61,628 bases of DNA, taken from UHGV virus genome UHGV-1709118; one strand, 5' to 3'. Under the pieces are notes generated by a model that saw only the letters and a program-made list of their open reading frames with translations, ran no database searches and was not told the DNA's origin. Numbering within the stretch: position 1 is the stretch's first letter; the number at the start of each line of letters is the position of its first letter. Made by a program: the position numbers and the translations under genes. This document shows, in pieces, positions 1-61,275 of this stretch. The stretch comes from a virus.

Positions 1-32
1 ATTACCTCGCGCCCGCTTTCGTTATTGGATAA
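1..32 (+). CDS. 3-prime end of DGR target gene (variable region, partial; gene body upstream of window)
   Basis: 1-15 matches TR 3-prime end attacctcgcgcccg; in the TR-equivalent frame the ORF reads YLAPAFVIG then TAA at 30-32. Confidence 0.55.
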   Translation, partial: YLAPAFVIG

Positions 33-59
33 CTGTAAAGTTACACAGTAAGGTTATAT

Positions 60-87
60 TGGCATTGGCCCTTTTGGGCCAATGCCA
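60..87 (+). promoter_or_regulatory. GC-rich stem-loop just downstream of VR (candidate DGR homing hairpin)
   Basis: perfect inverted repeat tggcattggccc-tttt-gggccaatgcca, 12-bp stem, no U-tract so not a typical terminator. Confidence 0.5.
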
Positions 88-148
88 TAGTATAAAAATG
101 CTTTCACCTTTTCTGGGAAAAATTTTTCTAAAAAAAATTTTTTTTCTT

Positions 149-177
149 TTGACTTTTTAAAAATTTTCTGATATAAT
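149..177 (+). promoter_or_regulatory. sigma70-like promoter upstream of avd-TR-RT operon
   Basis: TTGACT 149-154, 17-bp spacer, extended -10 TGaTATAAT 169-177; RBS aaggagg 197-203 before TTG start at 212. Confidence 0.5.
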
Positions 178-211
178 ATTACTTGTACGTTATTTAAAGG
201 AGGTTTTTAAT

Positions 212-676
212 TTGTCAGTAAGAAAAAAAGATAGGCATCAATCTAAAAATGATTATTTAAATGATGCAAGAAAGTTAGTTCATCAAGTATTGATTTTAGT
301 TCGTCCATATCAAGAATTAGATGATGGTTCTCATATAAAACCAGGCATTCTTGGTAATCCATACTATTATTCAGCCTTTGGCGCAGATATTTTAAAATGT
401 GCTAAAAACGCACATGGATATGCTTTCTCTGCTAGTTTAATCAATCTAAAAAATAAAAAAACTTTAGTTGAAAGAGCGGATTACTTTAATAAATCAATAA
501 GATATTGTGATTCAATTTTAAGGCAATTAGATTTATGTATTTATGAATATGGGTTAAATAATAAAAAGAAAAATAAATCTTTCAAATATGTTGCTAAACT
601 TACTTACAAATTAAAACAAAATCTTCTTGATAGAATAAATAGAGATAATCTAATTTATTCTCAGCGATACAAATAA
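212..676 (+). CDS. DGR accessory protein, Avd-like (accessory variability determinant) candidate
   Basis: 154-aa basic ORF (TTG start with good RBS) located between VR and TR as in avd-TR-RT cassettes; assignment is by position, not sequence identity. Confidence 0.4.
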   Translation: MSVRKKDRHQSKNDYLNDARKLVHQVLILVRPYQELDDGSHIKPGILGNPYYYSAFGADILKCAKNAHGYAFSASLINLKNKKTLVERADYFNKSIRYCDSILRQLDLCIYEYGLNNKKKNKSFKYVAKLTYKLKQNLLDRINRDNLIYSQRYK

Positions 677-699
677 TTTTTTATTCGGTTAAATTCTAA

Positions 700-814
700 A
701 AATATCGCGGGTCTCGCTACTACAACTCGAACAACACGAACAATGTGTGCAATGTCAACTCTGATGGTAATGCGAACAATACCAACTACAACAACAACAA
801 TTACCTCGCGCCCG
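700..814 (+). repeat. DGR template repeat (TR); 5-prime boundary approximate
   Basis: 3-prime end 800-814 identical to window 1-15; adenine-rich with many AAC codons in the VR-equivalent frame and no stop; GC-rich terminal block cctcgcgcccg. Confidence 0.7.
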
Positions 815-1121
815 ATTAGATGAGAACTCTAACTGTCTCTGGTGATGGAGCCGCAGGCGACATCGGCTGAGACGACTAAGTGTTACCCCAGAAAATTATA
901 ACCTATGTTATAACTCATCTATTTTTGGTATTTTCTGGACGCATTGGTTTTAAAACCAAGAAGGAGAGGAAATATTAAATAAAAGACTTAGATTATAATA
1001 GATAGCTTTCATTTAAGGAGAATTTAACCTTTTATCTATACAGATAATTAATTAAGATTGCGGATGTGCGTGTCAGAGCACACAATCTAGCACCGCATGA
1101 TAAAAAAAAGGAGAATTTTTT

Positions 1122-2354
1122 ATAGAAGAAAATCTTTTCCAGCGTTTTTGTAATTTTGACGCTTTTTATGATTCTTCTTATTCTATTTGCCGAAACGTAA
1201 GATGGAAAGATAGTACAGTTAATTTTGAAGAAAATAGATTAAATAACATCTTAACGCTTAAAGAACAATTAGAAAATGACAGTTATGAACAATTAGTTTT
1301 TAACAGTTTTAGTATAATTGAGCGGGGCAAACCTAGAGATATAAGAGCGTGCCATATTTATGACAGATTGGCACAAAATACATTATGTTCGCAAGTTCTT
1401 ATTCCAGAACTAACTCCAAAATTTATTTATGATAATTGTGCTACATTAAAAGGAAAAGGAATTGATTTTGCTTTGCTAGAAGTGCGTAAACATTTACAAG
1501 CAGCGCACAGAACATATGGTTTAGGAAAATCTTTTTATGGTTTAAGAATTGATATTCAAAAATTTTTTGATTCAATAGACCATAATTCTTTAAAGCAAAT
1601 GGCAAAACATTATATTAAAGAAAAACGAGTATTTAAATTAATTGATTATATTATTAATACCTTTTGTTTTTCAGTCACGAAAGATACAGTTCCTATTCCT
1701 GATAAACAATACTATATCATCAAAAAACAAAAATATAAGATAATTTATCCTAAACAATTTTATAAAAATTGTACTTATTATGAATTTAATCATAAAAGTT
1801 TAGGTTTAGGTAGTCAAGCATCTCAATTATTAGCTTTATTGGCATTAAATGGAATTGACCATTATGCAAAAGAGCATTTGCATTTAAAATATTATGGACG
1901 TTATATGGACGATATTTATATTTTGCATAATGACAAAGATTATTTAAAAGAATGTCTTAATAAAATTGAAAATGAATTAAATAAAATACATTTAAAATGT
2001 AACAAAAGAAAAACTAAAATAATTAAAATTAGTCCAATAAAACTAGATAAAAATAATTATCCTCATAAAAGACGTTCAGATAAACATAATCCATTTAAAT
2101 ATTTAAAATGGGATTTTTATTTAACTAATACGAATAAAATTATTCAAACTCCATTTAAAAAGAAAATAAAGCGACAATATAGAAAAATGAGAAAAATGCA
2201 CCAACTTTGGCTACAAGGTAAAATAACTGATATAGAAATTCAAGAATCATATCGAGGTTTTAGAGAACATATAAATAAAGGTACTACTTTTTATATTATA
2301 CAAAATCTTGATAATTATTTCCATTCATTATTTAAAGGAGTTGAAATATTATAA
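1122..2354 (+). CDS. DGR reverse transcriptase
   Basis: ORF track 1368-2354 has YMDD at 1902-1913 and LGSQASQ; open frame continues upstream to stop at 1101-1103 and encodes conserved N-terminal RT region (ERGKPRDIRACHIYDRLAQ); only ATA at 1122 follows RBS aaggaga, no ATG/GTG/TTG before 1368. Confidence 0.85.
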   Translation: MEENLFQRFCNFDAFYDSSYSICRNVRWKDSTVNFEENRLNNILTLKEQLENDSYEQLVFNSFSIIERGKPRDIRACHIYDRLAQNTLCSQVLIPELTPKFIYDNCATLKGKGIDFALLEVRKHLQAAHRTYGLGKSFYGLRIDIQKFFDSIDHNSLKQMAKHYIKEKRVFKLIDYIINTFCFSVTKDTVPIPDKQYYIIKKQKYKIIYPKQFYKNCTYYEFNHKSLGLGSQASQLLALLALNGIDHYAKEHLHLKYYGRYMDDIYILHNDKDYLKECLNKIENELNKIHLKCNKRKTKIIKISPIKLDKNNYPHKRRSDKHNPFKYLKWDFYLTNTNKIIQTPFKKKIKRQYRKMRKMHQLWLQGKITDIEIQESYRGFREHINKGTTFYIIQNLDNYFHSLFKGVEIL

Positions 2355-3013
2355 TGTATTTATTAATCAATAGAGAAAATATAGTAGTCGATATCCTCAC
2401 GGAAATCCGCTACATCAAATTACAATCCAACCCAAGTATTGTCATTGCTTGCTCGGAAGGTGAAGCTACAGGGGTAATAGGCTCAGATTGCAATAGCCAT
2501 TTCATTTTGGCTAATTCAGATATGACAGGTTCTATTGATGCAGTAAGAATTTTATCTTTTGATGGTAATATTCCAGAAGATTATGAACCTAATTTTTATA
2601 AATATGATAATGAAAAAAATGAATTAACATATTACTATTCTTTAGAAGAATACCAAAAAATGAAACAAGAAGAAAATAAAAAAGCTTTCGCTAATTTCCT
2701 TGTTAATCATCCTTTAACTTGGATTGATGGAAAGCAATATGGAGTTACAGAAGAAGACCAGGCAGAAATTAGCCTAAATATGAACCAATATTCTATGGCA
2801 ATTCAAGCTGGAGCCGAGAATCCTAGATTAGAATGGCATGCTCGCCAAGAAGAATGTACATCTTGGACAGTTGAAAATTTGACTGCTTTAACTTTAGCTA
2901 TTTCTGATTTTGTTTATCCTTATTATAGAAAAATGCAACAATATAAAACACAAATTTATACTGCTAAAAATTATAAGGAAATTAAAGCCATAGAATTAAA
3001 ATATGAAAATTAA
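2354..3013 (+). CDS. hypothetical protein, translationally coupled to RT (TAATG overlap)
   Basis: 219-aa ORF; ATG 2354 overlaps RT stop 2352-2354. Confidence 0.5.
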   Translation: MYLLINRENIVVDILTEIRYIKLQSNPSIVIACSEGEATGVIGSDCNSHFILANSDMTGSIDAVRILSFDGNIPEDYEPNFYKYDNEKNELTYYYSLEEYQKMKQEENKKAFANFLVNHPLTWIDGKQYGVTEEDQAEISLNMNQYSMAIQAGAENPRLEWHARQEECTSWTVENLTALTLAISDFVYPYYRKMQQYKTQIYTAKNYKEIKAIELKYEN

Positions 3014-61162: not shown

Positions 61163-61275
61163 AAGCACCTCTCCATTTTAGAATATTTTAAGAGATTTTA
61201 TTATAAGCACCTCTCCATTTTAGAATATTTTAAGAGATTTTATTATAAGCACCTCTCCATTTTAGAATATATTTT
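61163..61275. repeat. 42-bp direct tandem repeat, about 2.7 copies (iteron-like)
   Basis: unit aagcacctctccattttagaatattttaagagattttattat at 61163, 61205 and partial at 61247. Confidence 0.7.

Follow-up and report, generated by a model that had tools for sequence, protein, structure and literature searches.

Nucleotides 815-1121 of a 61,628-nucleotide stretch of the virus genome UHGV-1709118 (hereafter the window; 32% GC and part of a ~138-kb phage contig) lie between the template repeat (TR) and the reverse transcriptase (RT) gene of a diversity-generating retroelement (DGR). Most likely, this region is the spacer (Sp) part of the RNA of a gut-phage DGR; it acts in cis and is folded around the RT/Avd complex like the spacer of Bordetella phage BPP-1. 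It is an RNA of a known kind, the BPP-1-type DGR spacer RNA, which here is clearly expanded and has an extra, competing helix. The helices exist as conserved, covarying pairings, and their order and spacing match those of BPP-1. From this architecture we infer the protein contacts, the priming nucleotide, the 2′-5′ linkage and a role in termination. Positions given as Sp are counted from the first base after TR (Sp1 is nucleotide 815).

Conservation and covariation of the spacer

Scans of viral, metagenome and genome collections revealed approximately 100 related loci, with RTs 57-66% identical to that of the window, most of which were on ~140-148 kb contigs from human gut samples. Some of these were binned with Oscillospiraceae, Eubacterium or Clostridia metagenome-assembled genomes. 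The same scans returned ~40 further DGRs with RTs that were 25-35% identical. An alignment (A5) of 20 representatives of the close family, extending from upstream of TR through the RT start, showed the active model to be 93.3% paired, with 33 of its 56 pairs changed on both sides. When the model was compared with 500 shuffles, none of the shuffles reached it on four of five measures and one did so on the fifth; controls in which the partner was slid by 1-3 columns were 36-50% paired. RNAalifold, applied to the spacer alignment alone with no preset helices, recovered the template:primer duplex, a three-part P2, P5 and P6 (Table 1). It also paired two C:G to the invariant GG, which we do not rely on; apart from these, no spacer segment pairing with the GC-rich 3′-end of TR was found by eye. 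The spacer of the window had a minimum free energy of -74.9 kcal/mol compared to -57.9 +/- 4.9 kcal/mol for its shuffles (z = -3.47), and none of 100 shuffles was as good. A 50% GC island was present at 801-900, in surroundings of ~25% GC.

A first-pass annotation, made from the letters of the window alone, had proposed that this spacer primes cDNA synthesis and had named covariation among homologous DGRs as one way to check it. The covarying structure described above is what such a check looked for, and the other outcome that would have counted against the proposal, a conserved small protein, was not found among the related spacers. The priming role itself is supported by the element-by-element architectural match to BPP-1, which points to a priming element. 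The annotation had put the TR end at 814, in agreement with the match of a 15-mer and with a variable repeat (VR)/TR alignment in the sister contig L001 that ended at the same base. Two inverted repeats that it noted were both real, although the first, TTGGTTTT/AAAACCAA, is at 944-959 and not at 951-966, approximately 7 nt away; the second is TGCGG/CCGCA at 1059-1063/1093-1097. Neither of them is the priming site, as 944-959 forms the peripheral hairpin P4 and 1059-1097 is the counterpart of the RT-binding stem-loop.

Core elements of the spacer RNA

The BPP-1 spacer as described from cryo-EM was checked against the BPP-1 sequence (AY029185), which confirmed its numbering. In BPP-1 an Avd-binding stem-loop (Sp3-33) is followed by a primer strand (Sp47-56) that ends in A56, by G57 and C58, and by a Stop strand (Sp59-70) that pairs with the 3′-end of avd. 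Beyond these come a short UUCG hairpin, the nucleotides G79, A80 and A81, a 13-nt single strand and a long interrupted stem-loop stopping 5 nt short of the brt ATG (Handa et al. preprint 10.1101/2023.10.23.563531; Handa et al. 2018, PMC6182149).

The Stop duplex of the window, between strands on either side of TR, was a perfect 11 bp that none of 20000 shuffles reached. In the 20 representatives 95.9% of its cells were paired and 7 of the 11 pairs were compensatory, examples being GGUUAAAUUCU/AGAAUUUAACC, GUCAAGUUCU/AGAACUUGAC, GGUAAAAGCCU/AGGCUUUU(U)ACC and GGGUAAACCUU/AAGGUUUAUCC. The template:primer duplex was paired in 99.5% of cells, with two compensatory pairs. In every clade the primer strand was complementary to Sp2-11 and always ended at an invariant AA-GG (a hyphen marks the junction), and UAAGGA was invariant in 20/20 representatives. 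AA-GG was located at Sp186-250 in the window family, and A1016 (Sp202) is the predicted priming nucleotide of the window. A815, which is unpaired, is a candidate for the first template base.

The remaining core elements also covaried. P2 starts at Sp21, and four of the five pairs in each of its outer and apical helices had changed on both sides; RNAalifold added a third sub-helix. By analogy of position, P2 may bind Avd. A hairpin was present at the position of P5 in all clades with differing stems (5 pairs, with two-sided changes in up to 6 sequences), and was followed by A-rich sequence, as at BPP-1 Sp71-81. The linker at 1048-1058 was unpaired in all models, and the A, A and G of its UAAGAU were invariant; its putative role is that of BPP-1 Sp82-94. 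P6 is composed of an outer helix (UGCGG/CCGCA), an asymmetric internal loop in which GAUG and CUA were invariant, an inner helix (UGUGC/GCACA) and an 8-nt loop. Its outer helix was 99% paired with four of five pairs changed on both sides, and the inner helices covaried too. A covariance model of the family core (CM R1) scored 1005-1102 of the window at 73 bits.

In the mechanism that we propose, P2 (835-873) would dock Avd and P6 (1059-1097) would dock RT. Pairing of 1019-1029 with 687-697 would loop TR and set the end point of cDNA synthesis there, while 1007-1016 would pair with 816-825 immediately 3′ of TR. The 2′-OH of A1016 would then prime the cDNA, which would start at A815 or G814 and continue through TR.

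Table 1. Features of the DGR locus and its spacer RNA (window coordinates)
Feature	Position	Strand	Description
VR 3′-end	1-15	+	Last 15 nt of VR, remainder beyond the window edge; exact match to TR 800-814
Promoter-like site	149-177	+	TTGACT-17-TATAAT with TG extension; 11/12 consensus positions; putative
Avd-like accessory gene	212-676	+	154 aa; occupies the Avd position
Stop duplex, upstream strand	687-697	+	GGTTAAATTCT; 10 nt past the avd stop codon, 11 nt before TR
TR	709-814	+	From the L001 VR/TR alignment; 3′ junction ...CC[CG]G sharp in all relatives
Sp1-11, template strand	815-825	+	816-825 is UUAGAUGAGA; also the 5′ strand of P1
P2 stem-loop	835-873	+	GUCUC/GAGAC, GAUG/CAUC, apical GCC-GCA-GGC; counterpart of the Avd-binding stem-loop
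P3	888-938	+	CCAGAAAAU 888-896 with AUUUUCUGG 930-938; 9 bp; encloses site A
Site A	914-923	+	CUCAUCUAUU; alternative partner of 815-824 (helix P1, 8 bp)
P4 hairpin	944-959	+	UUGGUU-UUAA-AACCAA; first inverted repeat of the first-pass annotation
Variable linker	960-1005	+	Purine-rich; ends in site C, UAGAUAG 999-1005
Primer strand and GG	1007-1018	+	UUUCAUUUAA 1007-1016 and invariant GG 1017-1018; 10 bp with 816-825
Stop strand	1019-1029	+	AGAAUUUAACC; pairs with 687-697; counterpart of the BPP-1 cPRT Stop duplex
P5 hairpin	1032-1047	+	UUAUCU-AUAC-AGAUAA; adenosines at/after the 3′ side
Single-stranded linker	1048-1058	+	UUAAUUAAGAU, 11 nt; Thumb Ring counterpart by position
P6 terminal stem-loop	1059-1097	+	Counterpart of the RT-binding stem-loop; adjoins the RT start
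RT start region	1097-1124	+	ATG 1097-1099, A8 run 1102-1109, AAGGAG 1108-1113, ATA 1122-1124
DGR RT	1122-2354	+	RVT_1 6e-15; phrog_1423 1e-74

Several results weigh against a BPP-1-like spacer RNA. The helices were first read off one family member, which somewhat favours the paired-cell percentages given here. Complementarity between template and primer strands within the single window sequence was not above chance: 8-bp partners of 815-826 (Sp1-12) occurred in 46% of shuffles of the window sequence, so the template:primer and P1 helices rest on conservation and covariation and not on the window alone. An Rfam scan of 1-3000 (E <= 10) returned chance matches only, none of which covered the spacer. 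A search of BPP-1 (L080) with CM R1 gave nothing at E <= 1 and there was no primary-sequence similarity either, the correspondence with BPP-1 being architectural, without similarity at the sequence or covariance-model level. The template strand of the window (Sp2-11) is outside the TR/VR homology, whereas that of BPP-1 is TR118-129. Finally, the accessory protein had no Pfam, NCBIfam or PDB sequence match, its comparison with BPP-1 Avd by hhalign was negative, and the Foldseek E-values for its predicted structure were weak (0.015-0.8).

A pairing rule shared with distant DGRs

Approximately 20 distinct DGRs with RTs 25-35% identical to that of the window obeyed the same pairing rule, with spacers mostly of ~145-240 nt (~300 nt in one clade). 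In these the TR ended in ...CC[C/G]G and was followed by A-U-U-G..., and the complementary strand ended in ...CAA-GG-A. The GG was mostly at Sp57-63, near A56/G57 of BPP-1, and at Sp82-109 in L118, L126, L129 and L155. The next 12 nt paired with AGGGU...CU located ~135-150 nt upstream, just before TR. Two of the distant DGRs had a terminal C:G pair instead of U:A. In BPP-1, a rescue experiment with TR U118C and Sp A56G has been reported, of which these C:G pairs are the natural equivalent.

The spacers of the distant DGRs were not significant with CM R1; the best was L126, at E = 0.25 and in the right place. As CM R1 misses both these spacers and BPP-1, the wider relationship rests on the pairing rule and not on a profile. 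The rule itself, TR...G-AUU... followed by ...AA-GG-A and the Stop strand, allows the priming site to be predicted directly from sequence. Since the distant DGRs follow the same AA-GG rule, the invariant UAAGGAGAA of the window family is best read as a priming-site consensus and not as a ribosome-binding site (RBS).

Inserted domain and competing helix P1

Relative to BPP-1 and the compact relatives, the window has an insert of ~145 nt (~875-1005) that separates the Avd-type stem-loop from the primer strand. The insert of the window, like that of approximately half of the clades, contained P3, P4 and a purine-rich variable linker; the other clades had different insert modules, and the spacer of the L106 clade was only ~215 nt. 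P3 was absent from the L004, L047, L072, L106 and L108 clades and, in the clades that have it, was 82.5% paired with three pairs changed on both sides. Relatives had a hairpin at an equal offset past P3, with stem sequences unrelated to those of P4. The linker at 960-1005 differed in length and sequence among clades. Site C at its end is a second copy of UAGAUG and can mask the primer strand locally in most clades; the resulting hairpin was 90.9% paired where present, and was absent in the L047, L072, L106 and L108 clades.

Site A was kept in every clade of the window family. Helix P1, which it forms with the first bases of the spacer, was 94.2% paired with three pairs changed on both sides. 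P1 and the template:primer helix are mutually exclusive, and each had compensatory changes of its own: Sp9 changed from G-C to A-U with site A only, while Sp11-12 changed with the primer strand only. In constrained folding, the two states differed by no more than 1.5 kcal/mol in 10 of the 20 representatives (-0.3 kcal/mol in the window). One state was clearly favoured in some clades; in the L027 clade the P1 state was 7-13 kcal/mol more stable. Sites A and C were absent from the compact spacers of the distant DGRs.

We tentatively suggest that hypermutation may be gated by the spacer as a bistable RNA, in which the template strand toggles between the decoy site A and the primer strand. In the closed fold P1 would be formed and, in most clades, site C would also sequester the primer strand; the open fold would have the template:primer and Stop duplexes. 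Reverse transcription would be licensed only by a shift between the two that could come from RT/Avd binding, from the order of co-transcriptional folding, or from ribosomes at the AAGGAG-like priming site. Because the competing helices covary separately and are near-isoenergetic, such a conformational gate is possible but unproven, with a neutral relic as a fair rival. No gate of this kind for DGR RNAs was described in the literature searched. If functional, the competing helix would give control over when the phage mutates its receptor-binding protein.

That rival, which we consider rather unlikely, is that the insert arose by expansion or partial duplication of the primer region and is tolerated as largely neutral. 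Site A would then be a non-regulatory relic copy of the primer, and the BPP-1-like core would be all that matters. The variation of the insert in length and content by clade would be expected of such an expansion (the ~215-nt L106 spacer lacks P3, P4 and site C, and the L004, L047, L072 and L108 clades bear other modules in its place), as would the compact distant DGRs without any insert and the resemblance of site A to the primer strand. Neutrality does not explain why site A is kept in all clades, the shortest included, why it changes together with Sp8 and Sp9, including one compensation that is not common to the primer strand, or why P3 and P4 covary where present.

The strength of P1 could also be taken to mean that P1 is the sole real pairing of the first spacer bases, a basal stem of the Avd-binding domain, and that the true primer is elsewhere. 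The pairing and two-sided changes of P1 and the preference of the L027 clade for it would agree with this. It is nonetheless improbable, as the primer complement always ends at the invariant AA-GG and is followed by the Stop strand, the compensatory changes at Sp11-12 are not explained by P1, the distant compact DGRs have the primer pairing and no site A, and no other spacer segment complementary to the 3′-end of TR was found by eye.

RT start region and reading frames of the spacer

The 11-mer AAGGAGAAUUU occurred twice, at 1015-1025 (the predicted priming site and the start of the Stop strand) and at 1108-1118 (the RT RBS), and a third purine-rich stretch, AAGGAGAGG, was present at 961-969. 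Relatives likewise repeated UAAGGAGAA at the priming site and the RBS. As a ribosome-binding site for a spacer ORF, the copy of UAAGGAGAA at 1013-1022 was rejected: neither a start codon nor a conserved frame is present after it, and a TAA occurs eight codons on. As the priming-site consensus matches the Shine-Dalgarno sequence perfectly, competition with ribosomes or 16S rRNA, or binding of RT/Avd to their own RBS, is conceivable.

The repeated 11-mer, together with P6, which ends at or on a possible ATG (1097) and adjoins AAGGAG (1108-1113), would suit a 5′ leader that has no role in priming and controls only the translation of RT, by means of hairpins near the start codon and the Shine-Dalgarno sequence. 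We regard such a leader as very improbable. It accounts neither for the covarying long-range pairing of the spacer with sequence 5′ of TR, nor for the duplex that involves the first post-TR bases, nor for the element-by-element match to BPP-1; leader and priming roles are, moreover, not mutually exclusive.

The RT frame of the window was open from 1104, with an in-frame TAA at 1101-1103 and no ATG, GTG or TTG before 1368. The closest relatives, L001 and L026, had seven adenines where the window has eight (1102-1109). With A7, the ATG at 1097, within the 3′ strand of P6, falls in the RT frame, and the RT is 418 aa long. As the window also had one additional nucleotide in T runs at 147 and 922, a homopolymer assembly error at the A run is likely; otherwise RT would start at ATA 1122, which aligned with the TTG start of L027, or slippage would be required. 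The 3′ limit of the spacer is soft, since the A7 relatives put ATG 1097 in the RT frame.

The first-pass annotation had noted that no ORF lies between TR and the RBS. Just two small ORFs were present between 815 and AAGGAG, a 32-codon GTG ORF (880-978, + strand) and a 20-codon ORF (950-1012, - strand), and in 19 related spacers neither was conserved, whether by position, by frame and strand or by sequence. That the spacer encodes a small protein, such as the product of the 32-codon ORF, is scarcely credible: the ORF is present in the window, and relatives that appear to be recoded (see below) open a 92-96-codon frame if TAG is sense, but its position, strand, frame and sequence all vary by clade, the window frame is closed after 16 codons at a place where that of the recoded relatives remains open, substitutions in the helices are compensatory and there was no Pfam match.

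The DGR locus and other features of the window

The locus has the order VR gene, avd-like gene, TR, spacer and RT, all on the + strand. The 15-mer ATTACCTCGCGCCCG occurred at two sites only in the window, 800-814 and 1-15. The sister contig L001, which is of the same phage lineage as the window without being identical in sequence, had a full VR at 1793-1900, encoding the C-terminus of a 594-aa ORF. Mismatches between its VR and TR were nearly all at TR adenines, and the end base of the alignment was the TR end of the window. In more than 80 related loci VR stopped at the identical base (...CC[C/G]G followed by CUUUCG). L001 and these relatives thus have the TR/VR pair, differing almost only at TR adenines, by which a DGR is recognised, and the DGR family is active. 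Relatives including L007-L025 and L043-L073 had an identical TR and near-identical flanks, yet their VRs differed at TR-adenine positions. This gives a population-level view of ongoing diversification; the relatives have a C-terminal variable domain of the ...YxxYxxxxYLAPAFVIG type. No second VR was found inside the window with the TR adenines wildcarded.

The promoter-like site at 149-177 was the best-scoring within 1-2500, where no terminator-like site was found. The avd-TR-spacer-RT unit is probably transcribed from it; no internal RT promoter was found on the + strand of 815-1121. A perfect 11-bp hairpin, GGCATTGGCCC-TTTT-GGGCCAATGCC, was located at 61-86, ~45 nt past the VR end and immediately downstream of the target gene, with no T-run after it. 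This hairpin may be a terminator, or it may correspond to the DNA hairpin/cruciform 3′ of VR which, as reported by Guo and co-workers in 2011, target recognition in BPP-1 needs.

For the accessory protein, no sequence homology to Avd was detected in the comparisons with Pfam and NCBIfam, in the hmmsearch of PDB or by hhalign, and the link between the two is one of predicted fold. The AlphaFold2 model (pLDDT 91.9) had as its top Foldseek matches the S23-family four-helix bundles 2rld and 2gsc (TM by target 0.74-0.84), and matched BPP-1 Avd (4dwl_D) with a TM by target of 0.79 and a root-mean-square deviation of 2.7 A. In its predicted structure the protein is therefore a four-helix bundle of the S23-like kind expected of an Avd, at the level of the fold.

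The RT contained LGSQASQ and YMDD, which conform to the DGR-clade motifs [ILV]GxxxSQ and YxDD. Its best PDB sequence match was 8ub7_A (3.7e-13), a 328-aa reverse transcriptase which, from that length, we take to be the bRT of BPP-1. A retron RT model scored the window RT at 28.9 bits, against a cut-off of 235. There was no blastn match between 1-2400 and GenBank phages.

Several relatives, among them L002, L003 and L007-L025, had 8-10 in-frame TAG codons in RT and up to five in avd. Because these TAGs align with Gln of the window protein, the relatives appear to read TAG as Gln. Two to three consecutive TAGs were also present in relatives right after the RT start (TTG AAT TAG TAG; TTG AGT TAG TAG TAG), and these could delay RT synthesis until suppression is available. 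The RT and avd genes of the window had no in-frame TAG, reading TAG as sense barely lengthened its ORFs, and TAG terminated only one of its 41 long ORFs. Near the end of the window (61163-61270) there was a perfect, non-coding tandem repeat with a 42-nt unit, AAGCACCTCTCCATTTTAGAATATTTTAAGAGATTTTATTAT, in 2.6 copies. ARAGORN found no tRNA genes in the 61.6-kb window.

Comparison with known systems

Like that of BPP-1, the spacer of the window separates TR from an RT gene encoded on the same strand. The elements follow the same order, namely a stem-loop, a primer strand ending in A, 2 nt, a Stop strand, a short hairpin, adenosines, ~12 nt predicted to be single-stranded, a long stem-loop and the RT start. 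The model of the accessory protein has the Avd fold, and the solved structure nearest to the RT in sequence is the one taken to be that of BPP-1. As the first-pass annotation had supposed, the spacer is longer than the Bordetella phage prototype, at 307 nt compared to 144 nt, or about twice. Its predicted priming A is at Sp202 instead of Sp56, its post-TR stem-loop begins at Sp21 instead of Sp3, and it contains an inserted domain (P3, P4 and the variable linker) and site A. Of what characterises a BPP-1-type spacer, the window thus has the Stop duplex, the template:primer duplex followed by G, the post-TR stem-loop, and the series of hairpin, adenosines, single strand and terminal stem-loop; it differs in sequence and profile and in not having a length of ~140 nt with priming near Sp56.

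A survey of 278 DGRs predicted putative Avd-binding stem-loops and cPRT Stop duplexes for 207 of them, folding just 40 nt upstream and 100 nt downstream of TR (10.1101/2023.10.23.563531). Both elements, and the adjacent hairpin and adenosines, are present in the window, where they rest on covariation whereas those of the survey rest on single-sequence folding. As the Stop strand of the window begins 205 nt downstream of TR, the survey would miss this family.

Retrons also have a structured RNA, msr/msd, next to their RT, and prime in cis from the 2′-OH of an internal nucleotide, a conserved G flanked by the inverted repeats a1/a2. The window resembles them in having a structured RNA beside its RT and in its predicted cis-priming; to our knowledge, retrons lack a TR/VR pair, an Avd and adenine mutagenesis.

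Gut phages very commonly carry DGRs. As far as we know, the RNA requirements of DGR reverse transcription come from one Bordetella phage alone. The present analysis provides evidence at the level of covariation that the template:primer duplex, the Stop duplex and the counterparts of the Avd- and RT-binding stem-loops are conserved across a large family of ~140-kb gut phages; the BPP-1 architecture is retained even in DGRs with RTs ~30% identical, in spacers that can far exceed the 100 nt examined in the published survey.

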